A stretch of DNA of 7,242 nt, from IMG/VR virus record IMGVR_UViG_2690316028_000008, one strand, 5' to 3'. The stretch is from a virus. Lineage: Duplodnaviria; Heunggongvirae; Uroviricota; Caudoviricetes. The notes below the pieces were generated by a model, which worked only from the letters and a program-made list of their open reading frames with translations, was not told where the DNA came from and ran no database searches. Positions 1 through 7,242 of the stretch are shown here, in pieces. How positions within the stretch are numbered: the stretch's first letter is position 1; every line of letters starts with the position of its first letter. A program made the position numbers and the translations under genes.

Positions 1-156
1 CCTCTGACTGAGAGTTTACTCACTTAGCCGCGTGTCCACTATTGCTGGGTAAGATCACACATAGTAGCCTTTTAATTTGTATAAGTAGCAGCAGAGCCGA
101 AGTGCAAGGAAAACGTTGTGAGACGATGACGATATACAGAGCAATCATATATAATA

Positions 157-182
157 TGAAGAAAGAGCCGTGCTTGCGGCTC
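157..182 (-). terminator. Probable intrinsic terminator of the minus-strand cluster
   Basis: Read on the minus strand directly after the ORF1 stop codon (192..190): 6-bp GC-rich stem GAGCCG (182..177), 6-nt loop, stem CGGCUC (170..165), then U-rich tract UUUCUUCAU (164..156). Seen directly in sequence; stem is short. Confidence 0.45.
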
Positions 183-189
183 CAAAATG

Positions 190-1788
190 TTATAATTTCG
201 CATATATAGCATTAAACCAAGTTAATGTCTCGCCTTTTGCATCACTTGCAGTGAGCATTTGATAACTCATTTTTCCTGTAGCAAATTTATTTATCTTCTT
301 CTTCGCTTTACTTTCATTATAACGTGTTAAAGCAGATACCTCTGTTGATACATCTGTCGTATCATCTATGGTTATGTTTACACCAAACACCGCCTGAATA
401 GCATCAGGATGTAAATAATTTTCCATTTCCCTTTTTTCAGTCATGAATGCTATGGAACCATCATTTCTAGCATTTACTGACTTACATTCTTTTTCATACT
501 GAGGAGGGATGGCAACATCTCTATCATAGATGTGAACCTCAGGTTTATTTAGAATTTTTAAGTCATTATTATTAACCCAATCTTTAAGAGTATGTCCCCC
601 CATTGGAATGAAAACTATACGCGGATCATTTATCATATCAGGAACATTTGGAACACCTTGGTCGAGATAAATTTTACCGATATTCCTTAAAAAGTTTATA
701 TCATTAGGGCCTTCAACGCATACAAGAACAGATGCCCTACTATCAGGGTATACGCCAAGATCATTCGCTATGTTCTTTAGCACATCATCATTACCATTTT
801 TAACCTCTAAACCATCATCGAGTGTTCGGGTTATATGGCGTAGAGATTCTGTAGGTATCTTTTCCACAAGTGCAGGGACGTGGGTGGTAATCAATACTTG
901 GCATTTATCAGCATTTGCTAATTCTTGAAATGCATCAATAAGAAGTCTTTGATTAGATGGGTGTTGAGATGTTTCAGGTTCTTCAATTGCATAAATAACT
1001 CCTTTATCTGGGAATTCTTTTTGCAATCTTTCTGCTTCCGCTTTAAAAAAACTAATCAGGACTAAACGTCTAACACCACTACCACGTTTATTGATAGCTA
1101 TTCCTCTATCATCTTCCAATGTTAGCTTGAAAATATTTTCCCACTTAGGTTCCACTTTAAACTTTGGGATTAACCCGGCAGCAAGATTAGGAGATATATC
1201 ATGTAAATGTTTAATTGTGTTTTCAGCCACTTCAACTGCATGTTCTTTTACGCTTTCTTTAATGGATTCAAGTTGAATGTCAATCTTCTGCAATGCTGTT
1301 TGAACCGCTGACTTCATAGGATCCTGTACTTCTGATTCTTCATCGGTACTCGGCCTGTCTGCGCGGAATAATGCAAAGTGAGGGAGTTTGTCATATATTT
1401 TTTCACAAATAACCTTGCCCTCCTCAGCATTTAATTTAACGAAGATTTCTTTAAGCTTTAAATCTCCAATTTTCCTGTAAATTTCTTGTCTTAAACTAAC
1501 ATTGGACCTTTTATCAGCTCCATCAACACCAATAGATTCGGCAATTACTTTAAGTTCATCATTTTTTTTAGCAAGTAAAGATTTCGCGCCTTTTGCTGAG
1601 GGAGCCATACATTTAGCTTGAACGCTGCTAGATCCCTTACCTTTTGCAAATACTCTATATATTTCTAGCTTTCCATTACTATTTAATAAATATTCTTCTT
1701 TAAGGTTAGTTATAGATGTGGCATCCAAAACTATAGGTATATCAGCTCCTGAAAAGATACATCCAATTGACACGTCTTCATTTTCCAC
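190..1788 (-). CDS. OLD-family ATP-dependent endonuclease (ABC-type ATPase + C-terminal Toprim); frame as given starts at GTG and lacks the Walker A region, which lies upstream of an in-frame TAG
   Basis: ABC ATPase motifs: Walker B-like VIYAIEEPE, H-loop LITTHVP. Toprim motifs: VLVCVEGPND (nt ~709-729) and HIYDRD (nt ~517-525). The same frame continues upstream to ATG at 1977..1975 (MKLEKLIL-TAG-NFRGYHGEHSIDINSLTALVGRNDVGKTT) with Walker A GRNDVGKT at 1893..1867 and a GGAGA Shine-Dalgarno 3 nt before that ATG. No SD precedes the GTG at 1788. Family assignment is from motif recognition, not a search. Confidence 0.75.
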   Translation of the reverse strand: MENEDVSIGCIFSGADIPIVLDATSITNLKEEYLLNSNGKLEIYRVFAKGKGSSSVQAKCMAPSAKGAKSLLAKKNDELKVIAESIGVDGADKRSNVSLRQEIYRKIGDLKLKEIFVKLNAEEGKVICEKIYDKLPHFALFRADRPSTDEESEVQDPMKSAVQTALQKIDIQLESIKESVKEHAVEVAENTIKHLHDISPNLAAGLIPKFKVEPKWENIFKLTLEDDRGIAINKRGSGVRRLVLISFFKAEAERLQKEFPDKGVIYAIEEPETSQHPSNQRLLIDAFQELANADKCQVLITTHVPALVEKIPTESLRHITRTLDDGLEVKNGNDDVLKNIANDLGVYPDSRASVLVCVEGPNDINFLRNIGKIYLDQGVPNVPDMINDPRIVFIPMGGHTLKDWVNNNDLKILNKPEVHIYDRDVAIPPQYEKECKSVNARNDGSIAFMTEKREMENYLHPDAIQAVFGVNITIDDTTDVSTEVSALTRYNESKAKKKINKFATGKMSYQMLTASDAKGETLTWFNAIYAKL

Positions 1789-2317
1789 GCTATCGACACA
1801 TTTATCGGTAGCATCATATTTACATAGTTTATGTTCAAAGAAGACACCAAATGCGTCTAAGATAGTTGTTTTACCAACATCATTACGACCAACTAATGCA
1901 GTTAGTGAGTTAATGTCAATGCTATGTTCTCCATGATAGCCACGAAAGTTCTATAAGATTAGTTTTTCAAGTTTCATAAAAATCTCCATTTTTAAAAATT
2001 AAAATTTTATTTTTTAAAACTTACGCATTCGAAAAAACATTTGATTTTGTTGTATTCGAAGTAACAAGAACAATTTATAAAATTAGTTCAATCGAAGTCT
2101 TGGGTAAGACGCTTTTTCTCTTTAACAAAACGGATAACTACGCATTGGACAATAGATACTTTAGGAAACACGCGGAAAAATTGTAACGTTTTGCTCATTC
2201 TAGACCTGATATTCCTTCAAATTAGCAAGTTCGAGAGATAAGGGGAAATTACGATAGTCTACCAGAATCATTTCACACCTGCTCTAAACAATATGCAGAA
2301 AATAATATATGTATTTA

Positions 2318-2980
2318 TTAGTAAAGTTCTCCAGTTCCCTGATCTACACGTTTATAGAAATCAGAAAAATTACATGGGTCAGATATAACTGAGTTTTTAT
2401 CACTACGAAAATCAAATTCTATTTTTTTTATAAGATCAATGGCTGGTATAGTCGAATTTAAAGGGATTTTTTTATAGTTTCTAATTCTGTGATATTCAAT
2501 TGAGTCTAAGTCTACTTCAATCGCTTTATTACCAAAATAATAAAAATGATCTGAAATCAACACGTTATTAGAGCTAGTATCTCGTTCAAGATTTGTCATG
2601 TTAAATGAACCATCAGCATTGCTATGATGAGAATCTTCTTGTATCCATTCATTGTTTTCATTTTGATGGTAGATATTATCGCCCAGAATTTGTACATGAC
2701 TACCATTTCTAGCAGGCTTTTTGAGAGAGAACCTGGTATCCTCCCAATAACCATTGAAACTAATTTTTTCTGAAACTTTCATTAATAGGATACATTTTTT
2801 TTTAGCTGATTTTAAATTGGCTCCACCAACTCCGAGTATCCAATCACCCACTTTAGCTGACTTTCTAATTCCAGGTTTGCATGTTGCCAAGGTACAACTT
2901 CCATGAAATGGATTAGGTGCAAAACCAAAGTCTCTCGTTATTGCATAAACATAAAGGTGTGAGTTGGGATCAATTAGCAT
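2318..2980 (-). CDS. Hypothetical protein (220 aa), unknown function
   Basis: Uninterrupted 220-codon ORF, same strand as neighbours. ATG start overlaps the stop of the upstream gene (ATGCTAA). SD-like AAGGTGG about 9 nt upstream of the ATG. N-terminal region contains YAITRDFGFAPNPFHGSCTLATCKPG (Cys-x4-Cys); I do not recognise a family. Confidence 0.6.
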   Translation of the reverse strand: MLIDPNSHLYVYAITRDFGFAPNPFHGSCTLATCKPGIRKSAKVGDWILGVGGANLKSAKKKCILLMKVSEKISFNGYWEDTRFSLKKPARNGSHVQILGDNIYHQNENNEWIQEDSHHSNADGSFNMTNLERDTSSNNVLISDHFYYFGNKAIEVDLDSIEYHRIRNYKKIPLNSTIPAIDLIKKIEFDFRSDKNSVISDPCNFSDFYKRVDQGTGELY

Positions 2981-3465
2981 ACGACATTTCCACCTTGAAC
3001 TTTATCACGATCCGTACCATCAGGTTTTTCAAAGGAAGTTTTACCTTCTAGTGCGTTGATAATGGCATCACTTCTCCAGGCCACTATAGAGGTTGCATAC
3101 TTTTCGAGATTCTCTGGTAGTTTTACATCGCCTTTTAACCCATTTTCATATACACCTATGATTGGTTTTCCAAGTTGATGAGCTACTTGAATTTCCCAGT
3201 TTACCCAAGGTCTAGTATGTGTCTCTTTCCCGATAACAACTATAACTTGACTAGCCCACCTCATTTTCATTCTAAGTAAACGTGCAATCGTTCGGTCACT
3301 AAGTTTTTTTTCCTCAACTCGTCGCTGGTTTTCAGGTTTCATTCTAATAGAACTATTGCGTAAATGATAACCTTTTGCTGCAGCTAAACGAGAAACTCCA
3401 TCAACACTCGCGTCGTCTTTATGATGATGGCTAACAAAAACATTTTTCTTAATTTCTTTAACCAT
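2974..3465 (-). CDS. TIR-like domain protein (ThsB-like / DUF1863-type)
   Basis: 163-aa ORF with ATG start and AAGGA SD 7 nt upstream. N-terminal VFVSHHHKDD and central VVIGKETHTRPWVNWEIQVAHQLGKPIIGVYEN match the characteristic pattern of bacterial TIR-like (Thoeris ThsB-type) domains, including the conserved Glu in WVxxEI. Recognised by eye. Confidence 0.7.
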   Translation of the reverse strand: MVKEIKKNVFVSHHHKDDASVDGVSRLAAAKGYHLRNSSIRMKPENQRRVEEKKLSDRTIARLLRMKMRWASQVIVVIGKETHTRPWVNWEIQVAHQLGKPIIGVYENGLKGDVKLPENLEKYATSIVAWRSDAIINALEGKTSFEKPDGTDRDKVQGGNVVC

Positions 3466-3486
3466 TTTTAAATCCTTTGTAATTTG

Positions 3487-4518
3487 CTAATTATAAAATA
3501 ATTCTATATTATTGCTTTGATAATGGTATTTTTGTTTAGGCCTTTTATTGTTAAATTTAGTTCGGCATCTTTTATCTATCTCGCATGCACCACTATTTTC
3601 CATGTCCATTAAGGTGTAAACTCTTTCTTCTTTAGGCAGGAAATGGAATATTTCATCCATGTTCCAATTTTCTCTATACTTTTCAGCGATGTTATTTTGG
3701 TTTATAGTGAACCAGAATAAACACTCTTCGCTATTCATTCCATCTCTATTAGAAAAAATCCAATTAATTCCTCTTTCACAACCAGGACCTGAAATAACAA
3801 AGTTCAATTCTGTAAACGGAAAGTTGGGTATGTATGTCAGATCTATGAAAATTTGATATGCTAGAAAATCCCCAATCCCTGAGAATGATTTTAAATGTTC
3901 AAAAACTTCGAACTGATTTCCTGATGATTTTACACCATTAACGATTTTATCTTGGTTATAATAAACAAATTTTATCATTCTAATTACCATATCATTTTCC
4001 GGTATTCCTTCTATATTTTTTAAGTATTTTCCGAAGTTAAACTTCGGACCTCCTAAAATATAGGCTGCACTAAAAAATACGTAGCCTGGTTTTTTTAATG
4101 ATATGTTTATTGTCTTTTCTCTGATCTTTTCATTGATGTCGCGAATAGTCATTTTTGTGAAATCAAAGGGCGCATCAAGTTCATTTAATGTATCGCTTTT
4201 ATTTATTACTCTAAACAAAAATGAATTGAGTATTTTATTTTCATAAGTTAATTTATTGTTGTTTGTTATATTTTTCAATAACCATTTGGTTTCTTTGTCC
4301 CATGTTCTTTTAGTATTTACAAATTTATAGTTTCTCAATATTTTGTCGTCTGTCCAATATGGCGGAAGGTTAAGTATCTCTTTCTTGTAATATATGGATG
4401 TCCTCTCTCGTTGATGATAAAACCATTCCTTGATAACAGCTTCATTCAAGGTAGGTTTAGCGGTTTTAATTTTCATTTCTCTGACATTACAAAAAAGTTG
4501 ATCGTTTTTACTGTTCAC
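3487..4518 (-). CDS. Hypothetical protein (343 aa), unknown function; contains a helix-hairpin-helix-like motif
   Basis: Long uninterrupted ORF co-directional with cluster. Start uncertain: GTG at 4518 overlaps the upstream gene by 11 nt; an alternative ATG at 4476 gives a 329-aa product. Motif FSGIGDFLAYQIFIDL resembles HhH nucleic-acid-binding hairpins. No P-loop. No family recognised with confidence. Confidence 0.6.
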   Translation of the reverse strand: MNSKNDQLFCNVREMKIKTAKPTLNEAVIKEWFYHQRERTSIYYKKEILNLPPYWTDDKILRNYKFVNTKRTWDKETKWLLKNITNNNKLTYENKILNSFLFRVINKSDTLNELDAPFDFTKMTIRDINEKIREKTINISLKKPGYVFFSAAYILGGPKFNFGKYLKNIEGIPENDMVIRMIKFVYYNQDKIVNGVKSSGNQFEVFEHLKSFSGIGDFLAYQIFIDLTYIPNFPFTELNFVISGPGCERGINWIFSNRDGMNSEECLFWFTINQNNIAEKYRENWNMDEIFHFLPKEERVYTLMDMENSGACEIDKRCRTKFNNKRPKQKYHYQSNNIELFYN

Positions 4519-5065
4519 TTAATAATACCTTTTCGAAGAAATGTTTAAAACTATCAATTCCGTTCACATTGTTGTCAAAATGATATTCTGATTTTGTTTT
4601 ATTCTCAGTGACATACTTGTCGATTTCGTATTTTTTATAATTATTATTTTCCCGTTCTATATGTACTATAGTGAACTGATTGTTCTTACACCATGCGAAT
4701 TCTTCATTTGATCTTATGTCAGTAATTATTATATTTTTATTCGTCCCTCCATTTTTTTCTAAAATTTTCAACTCTTCTGATAGCATTCTAATAAATATTT
4801 TTTCTTCAATTTTCCTTAGGCTGTCTAAGCTCAGCCATATATCTCTTGGTGAATGGCTGATAAAGTCGCCGGTAGGTAAGGTTATATTGAGTGGTAACAT
4901 TTTATTTTCAGGTGGGTAATCCTTTTCCATCCAAGGATAAATATAATTGGCCAATTTTTTGAGTTGATCGCTAAATGATAATCTAATAAATCCATAGTTG
5001 GATATCAGATAATTGGCAAGAAAGTCTTTTCCACTACCCGATATGCCCATGAATGCAATTTTCAT
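4508..5065 (-). CDS. P-loop nucleotide kinase, deoxynucleoside-monophosphate-kinase-like
   Basis: 185-aa ORF. N-terminus MKIAFMGISGSGKDFLANYL has a Walker A/P-loop at the extreme N-terminus, as in phage T4-type dNMP kinases (MKLIFLSGVKRSGKD...). ATG (5065..5063) overlaps the TGA stop of the upstream TS-like gene (ATGA), suggesting translational coupling. Confidence 0.7.
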   Translation of the reverse strand: MKIAFMGISGSGKDFLANYLISNYGFIRLSFSDQLKKLANYIYPWMEKDYPPENKMLPLNITLPTGDFISHSPRDIWLSLDSLRKIEEKIFIRMLSEELKILEKNGGTNKNIIITDIRSNEEFAWCKNNQFTIVHIERENNNYKKYEIDKYVTENKTKSEYHFDNNVNGIDSFKHFFEKVLLSEQ

Positions 5066-6147
5066 AGACGGTCCTTATTAGAATTATTAAAATAATTAGA
5101 AGTTACGCTTAGATTGAAATCATTGCTTAACTTAGTTTTTAACACTATTGGTTGATTGAATCTTTCCTGGAAAATATATGATAGAGCTGCTTCTGCATAT
5201 CCCCAAAGTAAATTCCTTTCAGTTTCTACAAAGTGTTTAATAAATATTTTTTTTAGATTTTCGGTTTCCATATCTATTGTGTCTATTTTATGTTCATTTT
5301 CTGTTATTATTCTTTCAAGGAATGAAACTATATCACAGAATAATGATTTTATATTTTGTAACGATGGAGGGAATGATATTTCATCATCGTTTATCAAATC
5401 TGTCATTTGTTCTTCTTTTCTTTCGTATATTTCATTGGCTTGTCCTACTCTATCATCATATATATGAAGATTTGTTACTGATTGATGTAAGTATCCCAGT
5501 TTAATCTCGCTATCAACTTCCCTCTGTAATATTGAAAGTACTATCTCTTGAAGTAAACTAAACTCGAAAAGATTTATATTGCTCACTCCAAATATTAGAT
5601 CGCCGCTTCTTTGAACTATTTTAATGTTTAAATTTTTGTCAGGAGTGATAAAGAAATGAATTAAGTTATTACAAGGAATATCGACACTATGTTCTATGTT
5701 GTATACTTTTATGAGGCTTTCATTCGTATCTCTGTCAGGCATGTATAAGCTAATGACTGCTCTTCTTGTAAATATTCCTTCTTTTTTGAATTGTTGCACG
5801 ACATTCTCAAGTTGCCCGTGAGCGTATAGTCTTTCCCCATAAGCTGCTCGCCAAATGACACCATCATCTGAGTATTTAGGCGCTCTTGGTAAAAAAAAAT
5901 TTAGATATGGTTTAATTCTGTTGTCGCCAGCAAAAACCCATATAGCTTCAGCAAATGTGGAAAATATATTATTTTTTCGACCCGCTAAACTTAAATGCCT
6001 TGATCTAGGGTTTCGTAAGATCATACTAACATCATAAATAGTTATAGCATCCCCATTCCTTGTCGAAATACGAACTCCTTCATTAAGCACTTTTTCTAGG
6101 AGTTTCATTATTACATCGTTAATAGTTTCTCCGTAAATGACGTGCAT
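5062..6147 (-). CDS. Thymidylate synthase superfamily enzyme (ThyA-like; possibly a dNMP C5-methylase or hydroxymethylase) with C-terminal extension
   Basis: Motif-by-motif correspondence with E. coli ThyA: KVLNEG (KVLDEG), EAIWVFAGDN (ELLWFLQGDT), TRRAVISLY (SRRIIVSAW), DIPCNN (APCH, catalytic Cys; codon at 5673..5671), QRSGDLIFGVSNINLFEFSLL ([20 protein letters not shown]), HIY (HLY). About 115 extra C-terminal residues with no TS counterpart. ATG at 6147 preferred over the upstream in-frame TTG at 6153 because SD GAGG lies 8 nt before the ATG. Confidence 0.8.
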   Translation of the reverse strand: MHVIYGETINDVIMKLLEKVLNEGVRISTRNGDAITIYDVSMILRNPRSRHLSLAGRKNNIFSTFAEAIWVFAGDNRIKPYLNFFLPRAPKYSDDGVIWRAAYGERLYAHGQLENVVQQFKKEGIFTRRAVISLYMPDRDTNESLIKVYNIEHSVDIPCNNLIHFFITPDKNLNIKIVQRSGDLIFGVSNINLFEFSLLQEIVLSILQREVDSEIKLGYLHQSVTNLHIYDDRVGQANEIYERKEEQMTDLINDDEISFPPSLQNIKSLFCDIVSFLERIITENEHKIDTIDMETENLKKIFIKHFVETERNLLWGYAEAALSYIFQERFNQPIVLKTKLSNDFNLSVTSNYFNNSNKDRL

Positions 6148-7057
6148 AAACAAAACCTCATGCTATAAAAACATCTTTTTAGTTGATATAGTTTATTGGG
6201 CCTAATCCAGAATTTGGTCCAGCTATGATCTGGACTAACCGGATAGCACGTTTCAATCTCTTGCCTCTAAGAACAGGCTCGAACGTGATAGCCAATTGGC
6301 TTCCCACTTAGCAAGTGAGACCTCGACCCACGCTACCGCCCTCAGTTGCATAGGCACTGCGTTTGTATGAACATTTACAAATGTTACTCATGTTATGGGT
6401 TTGGTCAATCTGGCAATAAGATAATTACGAAACTTTAGACTTATTACTTAAGTGGAGGTGGCGCGAGTCGCTAGCGAGTAAGACTGTCTCTTATATGTAC
6501 CAGAAGCACAACTGACGATGCTCCAAAATCATAGTCACCGCTGCGTAGCAAGCTGTGGCCTCTCGCTACTCCCGGGTGCCCCAGTTACAACGTTGTGGGT
6601 TGCATAAGAAATCTGTCCCGCCGGATTAGAGTGGTGGTGGATTACTGACTGTACTCTGCGTTCAATACAGAGACAGCCCGGAACAGGCAGTAATTGATGC
6701 CGGAACGAGACTATTTAAGAACAAACCGCCCCCGGTTAGCAGGATCGTCTCGGCCGGCAGGAAAGCATGCTAACACCTACATGAAGTCCCTGTCAGTGCA
6801 GGCCCCAGACTCAACACCACCAATCTACTTTTCACCACTGCGAAGTAAGGGGCGCTACGCCCGGTTATGCAGGGGCAGTTTTTCTCCTGTGCGCTTTTCG
6901 TTCCTCTATCGGCTTCCTGTTAATCGTTTCCCAACACAACCCGTCCCGCAAGGGTAAATGGCACGCATGCTGCGCCCTTGCAGGACAGAACGATGTCGGG
7001 AAAGCGAACCGTCAGGCGATACGAAGACGAAAATCACACACTGACGGAGAAAAAACG

Positions 7058-7237
7058 ATGACGATTTCCCTGCATACCACCCGGACAAGCGCCCCTAACA
7101 CCGCAGCGGCGACCAGCGTATCCCCGCTGGACCCGTCAGGCTCCTCAAAAACGAAATTTTCTAAAACCAGAACCGACATTTACCGTAAGCGTCGTCTGAG
7201 TACCGTCTGGTCCCGAATCCAGGATCCTGTAACTTAA
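7058..7237 (+). CDS. Hypothetical small protein (59 aa), Ser/Thr/Pro/Arg-rich
   Basis: ATG at 7058 preceded by GGAGA about 8 nt upstream; ORF runs to TAA at 7235-7237 (MTISLHTTRTSAPNTAAATSVSPLDPSGSSKTKFSKTRTDIYRKRRLSTVWSRIQDPVT). Just below the 60-aa ORF-track cutoff. No family recognised; could be a remnant. Confidence 0.3.
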   Translation: MTISLHTTRTSAPNTAAATSVSPLDPSGSSKTKFSKTRTDIYRKRRLSTVWSRIQDPVT

Positions 7238-7242
7238 GCACC

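Follow-up and report, generated by a model that had tools for sequence, protein, structure and literature searches.

The closest described relative of the locus studied here comes from the DefensePredictor work (Science 2026, PMC13092281), in which a five-gene unit called 'NTTI', later named DS-4, was cloned from an E. coli strain. DS-4 was counted as validated, and its sole row in Table S7 is for lambda, with a -log efficiency of plating of 0.93 (about 9-fold) and smaller plaques (PMC13092281). The main text does not name DS-4 and, in the sections consulted, offers no mechanism for it (PMC13092281). Here we analyse a stretch of 7,242 nucleotides (nt) filed in IMG/VR as a Caudoviricetes virus record (IMGVR_UViG_2690316028_000008), called the window throughout, and in particular the gene at 2318..2980 on its minus strand. 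This gene begins with ATG and encodes a 220-amino-acid (aa) protein of the Nmad2 family, with a predicted PUA-like fold, that is translated together with a TIR enzyme, of which it appears to be the obligate partner.

Comparison with known systems

The window carries the same five genes as DS-4 in the same order, all on its minus strand: a thymidylate synthase (TS)-like hydroxymethylase gene, a P-loop kinase gene, an HMUDK_hel gene, a ThsB-type TIR gene and the Nmad2 gene. Both operons come from E. coli mobile DNA, and from TS to Nmad2 the DS-4 proteins are 78, 72, 77, 93 and 81% identical to those of the window. Protein identity and gene order mark the operon as orthologous to the DS-4 anti-phage system, as a different allele carried by a different element. 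What follows Nmad2 also differs. In the window lineage, an AAA_15/OLD-like ATPase gene comes next and then a cluster with a probable transmembrane (TM) protein and three TIR proteins. In its native setting, DS-4 is followed by a convergent cluster encoding SLOG3, TIR_2, TIR_2, SLOG2-patatin and ThsB_TIR proteins, which begins 288 nt after Nmad2 (L092-L094, 9951-14993); by the clone coordinates, this cluster lies outside the clone that was tested. Such convergent clusters may form the system's effector half.

Thoeris shares several features with the locus. The window TIR is of the ThsB type and has the putative catalytic Glu, and at the loci of relatives SLOG-domain proteins, SLOG-patatin included, lie nearby, as a ThsA-like receiver would be. 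However, the window TIR has Nmad2 as its partner in every case and in most cases pyrimidine-nucleotide enzymes as well, a kind of enzyme that Thoeris does not have. Searches of the six window proteins with Pfam and PADLOC found no ThsA effector (a SIR2 or TM domain with SLOG or Macro), and with no ThsA in the window a classical Thoeris system was rejected.

Phage thymidine hypermodification clusters encode a dUMP hydroxymethylase, a 5-hydroxymethyldeoxyuridine (5-hmdU) DNA kinase (5-HMUDK) and an aGPT-Pplase (PMC5889632, PMC8989533). The 5-HMUDKs phosphorylate 5-hmdU in DNA (PMC8989533). The window resembles these clusters in its TS-fold, hydroxymethylase-like gene and its HMUDK_hel protein, but its operon is cellular and borne by an integrative and conjugative element (ICE), has a separate, unrelated P-loop kinase, and adds TIR and Nmad2. 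A Pfam scan of the window operon left aGPT-Pplase unmatched and found no pyridoxal phosphate (PLP) or other tailoring enzyme.

Nmad2 showed no sequence-level relationship to the PUA-like readers of modified bases (YTH, EVE and ASCH; the McrB N-terminal domain, VcaM4I and PD-T4-3). It differs from them in having its own invariant polar set (Cys34, His119, several Asp and Asn) and, in the TIR-linked subfamily, an extra C-terminal segment of about 60 residues. In mildiomycin biosynthesis, the partner of MilA is MilB, an N-glycosidase with a nucleoside 2-deoxyribosyltransferase fold that is considered akin to TIR. MilA is the closest of the solved structures to the window TS-like protein. The window TIR, however, is a bona fide ThsB-type protein and not a MilB homologue, and we mention the resemblance as a possible lead.

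The Nmad2 gene and its family

The Nmad2 open reading frame (ORF) is a real gene under purifying selection, with a dN/dS of 0.11-0.22 against five orthologues. GC content around the ORF is about 30%, and because of this a 663-nt open frame is unlikely to arise by chance. The exact protein sequence is found in at least 1000 public contigs. Gene and TIR gene meet at the motif ATGCTAA (2974..2980, minus strand), which combines the Nmad2 ATG (2980-2978) with the TAA of the TIR gene (2976-2974) in a 7-nt overlap and, as read from the sequence, points to translational coupling. A Shine-Dalgarno-like AAGGTGGA lies at 2989..2996 (minus strand), within the 3' end of the TIR gene and 9 nt before the Nmad2 ATG. 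The closest orthologues also have a G-rich block at this position, and AAGGTGGA would act as the Shine-Dalgarno sequence for Nmad2.

Pfam PF18753 (Nmad2) matches the 220-aa protein with 216.6 bits (cut-off 26.1; E=3.1e-64), residues 8-179 aligning with model positions 3-176 of 200. The family motifs DxGFAPNP, CKxxxR, GDNxY, Q..H and D134, conserved at 90% or more in 102 Nmad2 representatives at no more than 50% identity, are all present. In RefSeq, the identical protein is called 'Nmad2 family putative nucleotide modification protein', UniRef names agree, and the window's own Nmad2 (WP_023143489.1) stands in DefensePredictor Table S5 as a predicted defence gene. Clustering at 90% identity divides the family into 7,082 clusters, and at 50% identity 2,021 representatives remain; by its sequence, the window protein is an ordinary member with nothing setting it apart. 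Profiles from PHROGs, NCBIfam and PADLOC gave no match to the ORF, a PDB sequence search matched no solved structure, and a full-text literature search for 'Nmad2' returned unrelated papers only. The Nmad families were reportedly defined by Iyer et al. in 2013 in Nucleic Acids Research (NAR).

A sequence-only reading of the window had already reported the ORF at 2318..2980 and its overlap with the TIR stop, and both are confirmed by reading the letters directly. The Cys-x4-Cys pair that it noticed is C29-x4-C34, and the N-terminal block that it thought conserved-looking is indeed the stretch where the family is most conserved (blocks 11-50, with a mean column identity of 0.6-0.8 in the 102 representatives). 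The co-expression with the TIR gene that it proposed is supported by the tight, overlapping packing of the five genes.

Conservation of the TIR-Nmad2 pair

The TIR gene (2974..3465, minus strand) encodes 163 aa that match Pfam ThsB_TIR (E=3.8e-20) and, over their full length, the PADLOC ThsB1 profile PDLC00418 (E=4.4e-73). The protein aligns to the ThsB structures 6LHY and 9B7D across the WxxxE motif. To this locus we added 80 loci of Nmad2 relatives (44-99% identity), making 81 in all; the 80 span Gammaproteobacteria, Nitrospirota, Bacteroidota, Cyanobacteria, Acidobacteriota, Verrucomicrobiota, Actinomycetota, other groups and one metagenome-assembled genome (MAG) labelled Promethearchaeota.

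A homologue of the window TIR lies immediately upstream of Nmad2 on the same strand at every locus (81/81). The exact 7-nt overlap is kept at 48 of them, and the junction NTG-YTR-R, a terminal Cys codon followed by the stop, at 78. The putative catalytic Glu of the TIR, E91, is present in 76/76 adjacent TIRs and the C-terminal Cys (Cys163 here, at the TIR C-terminus, 2974-2979) in 75. This Cys is under selection at the protein level, because its codon is kept where the base before TG is C and no start codon results. Domain fusions occur as well, as Nmad2-ThsB_TIR-TIR_2 and TIR-Nmad2 proteins. Another apparent fusion, P0179 (partial HMUDK_hel, partial TIR and Nmad2), is a probable gene-calling chimera and was not used.

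A functional TIR-Nmad2 partnership is well supported because of the order kept at all 81 loci, the junction and overlap, the fusions and the invariant TIR Glu, and we hold both the family identity of Nmad2 and its partnership with the TIR with high confidence. The sequence-only reading had suggested such a partnership and proposed co-occurrence in related genomes as a check; the pair proved to be conserved at all 81 loci.

The genes around the pair vary much more. HMUDK_hel is found at 39 of the 81 loci, the TS-like gene at 25 (24 of them with HMUDK_hel) and the 185-aa kinase at 11. MazG-MazG_C is present at 38, a UDG-like gene at 22-23 (always with MazG_C) and a dCTP-deaminase-like gene at 14. 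At least one pyrimidine-nucleotide gene occurs at 70/81 loci, and either HMUDK_hel or MazG_C at 68/81. Extra TIR proteins, a TM protein, or SLOG cluster-3 or SLOG2-patatin proteins are encoded at 75/81. Homologues of the convergent-cluster genes recur beside TIR-Nmad2 in other phyla.

A tblastn search for Nmad2 in 50,697 phage genomes found zero relatives. The TS-like protein matched 563 phage records and HMUDK_hel 393, mostly from phages of about 145-160 kb that infect Salmonella, Klebsiella, Dickeya, Escherichia and Vibrio. The ViI-type phages, which hypermodify thymidine, belong to this group. On these sequence matches, the cellular system appears to join phage-type enzymes of 5-hydroxymethyluracil (5-hmU) with a TIR-Nmad2 pair that is absent from phages.

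The upstream enzymes of the operon

The five genes are separated by overlaps of 4, 11 and 7 nt and a single gap of 21 nt. The first gene (5062..6147, minus strand) encodes a TS-fold enzyme of 361 aa from the ATG at 6147, matching Pfam Thymidylat_synt (E=1.3e-16) and phrog_3676 (E=6.8e-78). The start was set at 6147 because of comparison with the DS-4 protein, in which it is conserved; the RefSeq start, at 6108, is 13 codons shorter. The best solved relative of this protein is the CMP 5-hydroxymethylase MilA (E=2.3e-14), with thymidylate synthases at 1e-6 or above, and it is probably a pyrimidine-nucleotide 5-hydroxymethylase. In the alignment with MilA it has Asn at the position of a MilA Asp, in a column that we take to correspond to Asn177 of thymidylate synthase and Asp179 of T4 dCMP hydroxymethylase. 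This one column suggests a uracil rather than a cytosine nucleotide as substrate.

The second gene (4508..5065, minus strand) encodes a P-loop nucleotide kinase of 185 aa (Pfam DNMK, E=2.8e-10; phrog_139 dNMP kinase, E=2.9e-30) and is the one that overlaps the HMUDK_hel gene by 11 nt. The latter (3487..4518, minus strand) encodes a protein of 343 aa that matches Pfam PF18723 (E=4.2e-53) and phrog_2396. HMUDK_hel is the helical domain of 5-hmdU DNA kinases, and the 343-aa protein has no P-loop domain of its own. In some phyla, HMUDK_hel is fused to an N-terminal dTMP-kinase-like P-loop domain in proteins of 532-567 aa (L041, L056, L057 and L065). We considered whether the 185-aa kinase and HMUDK_hel are a split form of this fused 5-HMUDK and rejected the idea: the fused kinase domains are dTMP-kinase-like and unrelated, and position alone is analogous. 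The Enterobacterales 185-aa kinase beside a stand-alone HMUDK_hel looks like a non-orthologous replacement of the kinase partner.

Fold and conserved residues of Nmad2

The core of Nmad2 is predicted, from a structure model, to be a PUA-like beta-barrel of the YTH/EVE/ASCH type, and the predicted fold showed structural similarity to that core barrel. PUA-like folds elsewhere hold a flipped-out modified base. Pfam YTH, EVE and ASCH gave no match to Nmad2 at E<=0.1.

Residues invariant in the 102 representatives are D17, G19-P24, T30-A32, C34, K35, R39, K87, P89, G100-N102, Y104, Q114, H119, D134, Y148 and G150, and the family-wide invariant motifs include GFAPNP (19-24) and GDNxY (100-104). F20, Y78, Y104 and Y148 are invariant aromatics across the family, and W47 and W112 within the TIR-linked subfamily. 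C34 is conserved in 98% and C29 in 88%. Conservation of C63, H118, C203 and the final 60 residues is confined to the TIR-linked subfamily; a four-Cys zinc or Fe-S site (C29, C34, C63 and C203) was therefore rejected as a family feature, as C63 and C203 belong to the subfamily alone.

A possible mechanism and its alternatives

We tentatively propose that Nmad2 is a nucleobase-pocket reader coupled to the TIR, a reading that we favour while granting that it may well be wrong. The three upstream enzymes would make a uracil-derived product, either 5-hydroxymethyl- or 5-phosphomethyl-uracil. Nmad2, as the nucleobase-pocket subunit of a TIR-Nmad2 complex, would recognise a uracil-derived modified nucleotide or DNA base, and this recognition would be coupled to the NAD+-cleaving TIR. 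The TIR would then block phage growth, either directly or by sending a signal to TIR, SLOG or patatin proteins encoded nearby. What we infer here is which ligand is bound, which way control runs and what output the TIR gives.

Several observations weigh against this proposal. The support for a defence function is a single weak screen phenotype of a homologue with 72-93% identity, not of this operon. Foldseek with the Nmad2 model gave zero matches at E<=0.001, and the most conserved loop of the protein (residues 90-135) was modelled at low confidence. About twelve polar positions do not vary within the family (D17, N23, C34, K35, R39, K87, D101, N102, Y104, Q114, H119 and D134), a set more reminiscent of the active site of an enzyme than of an aromatic cage in a passive reader. 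Five of nine Nmad2 relatives on viral contigs (39-61% identity) have no TIR, and four have one; in three of the five, MazG_C and/or UDG takes the place of the TIR, and the other two lack these as well. Finally, 5-hmU is not a universal ligand, because the TS-like gene is found at only 25 and HMUDK_hel at only 39 of the 81 loci.

The polar residues, with one Cys and one His among the twelve, lead directly to the possibility that Nmad2 is an enzyme and not a reader, with Cys34, His119 and Asp in a PUA-like pocket acting on a pyrimidine. It might displace phosphate from 5-phosphomethyl-uracil, which is the step of the phage aGPT-Pplase, or make a base-ADP-ribose conjugate with the TIR. Some ASCH-fold proteins are catalytic, and the hits included an ASCH protein crystallised with S128A and Y47F mutants and the ac4C amidohydrolase YqfB. 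With TS-like and HMUDK_hel genes and no aGPT-Pplase match, the transferase step stands vacant. A Nmad2-MazG-MazG_C fusion also exists, and the name of the family reflects such association. However, Nmad2 was not found in the phage genomes that perform thymidine hypermodification, the TIR-Nmad2 pair also occurs without TS-like or HMUDK_hel genes, and the Nmad2-NOV_C and Nmad2-TIR fusions resemble sensor-effector architectures. We regard an enzymatic Nmad2 as unlikely, though it is the main rival to the reader proposal.

The operon could instead hypermodify thymidine in self-DNA, as an epigenetic or restriction-modification-like mark on host or ICE DNA, with the TIR and Nmad2 serving as tailoring enzymes. 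The relation of the TS-like and HMUDK_hel proteins to those of the 145-160 kb phages is in keeping with this idea, as is the action of 5-HMUDKs on 5-hmdU within DNA (PMC8989533), and RefSeq names the DS-4 HMUDK_hel protein 'putative DNA base hypermodification protein'. It is nevertheless improbable: the operon has no dedicated polymerase, dUTPase, dTTP-exclusion gene or restriction partner, the TIR retains its NAD+-cleaving Glu, the additional neighbours (TIR, SLOG and patatin) are of kinds typical for immune signalling, and DS-4 alone reduced the plating of lambda in a naive host.

An equally speculative extension would place the TIR-Nmad2 pair at the heart of an immune pathway that is widespread, differs from Thoeris and produces a novel type of signal or poison derived from a base and NAD+. 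The TS-like hydroxymethylase with HMUDK_hel, or MazG-MazG_C with UDG or dCTP deaminase, would make a uracil-derived base, which the PUA-like pocket of Nmad2 would hold using its invariant Cys and His. The TIR would join this base to an NAD+-derived nucleotide, or exchange it into one, yielding a product whose receivers would be encoded by the convergent SLOG, TIR, patatin or TM genes. The family's breadth, about 7,000 protein clusters in many bacterial phyla and one MAG assigned to Asgard archaea, would then be the breadth of the pathway. If this long shot were true, the weak DS-4 score would be due to cloning without the convergent cluster.

An immunity or antitoxin role, in which Nmad2 silences a toxic TIR NADase until infection, corresponds to the 'regulator' that the sequence-only reading had mentioned. 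Overlapping, translationally coupled genes and the strict TIR-then-Nmad2 order are what such a pair would show. Both proteins, however, are unusually conserved, with about 60-65% identity between the E. coli copies and those of Nitrospirota or Bacteroidota; Nmad2 has a conserved polar pocket and is naturally fused to TIR, and it is also found without a TIR, beside MazG_C and UDG. We consider this role very doubtful. The earlier view of Nmad2 as a protein without an assignable family and a candidate novel domain, for which the lack of a PHROGs, NCBIfam or PADLOC model and of a solved structure matched by sequence might have spoken, is refuted by the PF18753 match over residues 8-179 (E=3.1e-64), the agreeing RefSeq and UniRef names and the Table S5 entry, and has practically no chance of being right.

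Implications for DS-4

Much about this gene was already known: the Pfam family exists, RefSeq has a name for the exact protein, and an operon of this type appeared in print in 2026 under the name DS-4. Four points are of use in working out how DS-4 operates. What stays constant is the TIR-Nmad2 pair and not the set of five genes; Nmad2 combines the predicted fold of a modified-base reader with enzyme-like invariant residues; the uracil-nucleotide modules beside the pair are interchangeable; and the tested clone omitted the convergent SLOG/TIR/patatin cluster of the native locus. The remaining interest lies in the biochemistry of the TIR-Nmad2 pair.

Genomic setting of the operon

Among 5,426 complete E. 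coli genomes, 12 have chromosomes that match positions 57-7184 of the window at 99.9% identity, and in these the operon is cargo of a conjugative element with ArdC, MobC, coupling protein and VirB genes. The sole match between the window and phage sequences is a terminal repeat of 57 bp. This repeat (1-57) occurs in 4,271 of the 5,426 E. coli genomes, with a median of 3 copies, and looks like the end of an insertion sequence. Both window ends (1-57 and 7184-7242) differ from the 12 matching chromosomes, and the ArdC frame, which starts at 7058, enters past 7184 a sequence that elsewhere adjoins transposase remnants. The source segment thus appears to be flanked by mobile-element sequence at both ends.

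Between the operon and ArdC lies a non-coding stretch of 900 nt (6154-7057), over which GC content climbs from about 30% to about 54%. It is the boundary between AT-rich cargo and the backbone of the conjugative element, and the promoter of the operon should lie within it. Promoter and terminator scans of the window did no better than on shuffled sequence, and Rfam and tRNA scans of it gave no hits.

On the other side of the operon, the gene after Nmad2 (190-1979, minus strand) encodes an AAA_15/AriA/OLD-like ATPase. It was rejected as a component of the system, as it is found at only 3 of the 81 loci. In the E. coli lineage of the window, there lies beyond it a cluster that encodes three TIR proteins with a hypothetical protein on either side (L001, 10986-14889). 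The first hypothetical protein of this convergent cluster is a probable TM protein, going by a weak HHpred match in DefensePredictor Table S5. The ATPase frame from the ATG at 1977 meets a TAG at codon 9 (MKLEKLIL*NFRGYHGEH...), where the Phytobacter orthologue (L003) has AAG (Lys). Because of this TAG, the RefSeq start of the E. coli ATPase is the ATT at 1920, and the gene may encode an N-terminally shortened protein or be a pseudogene.
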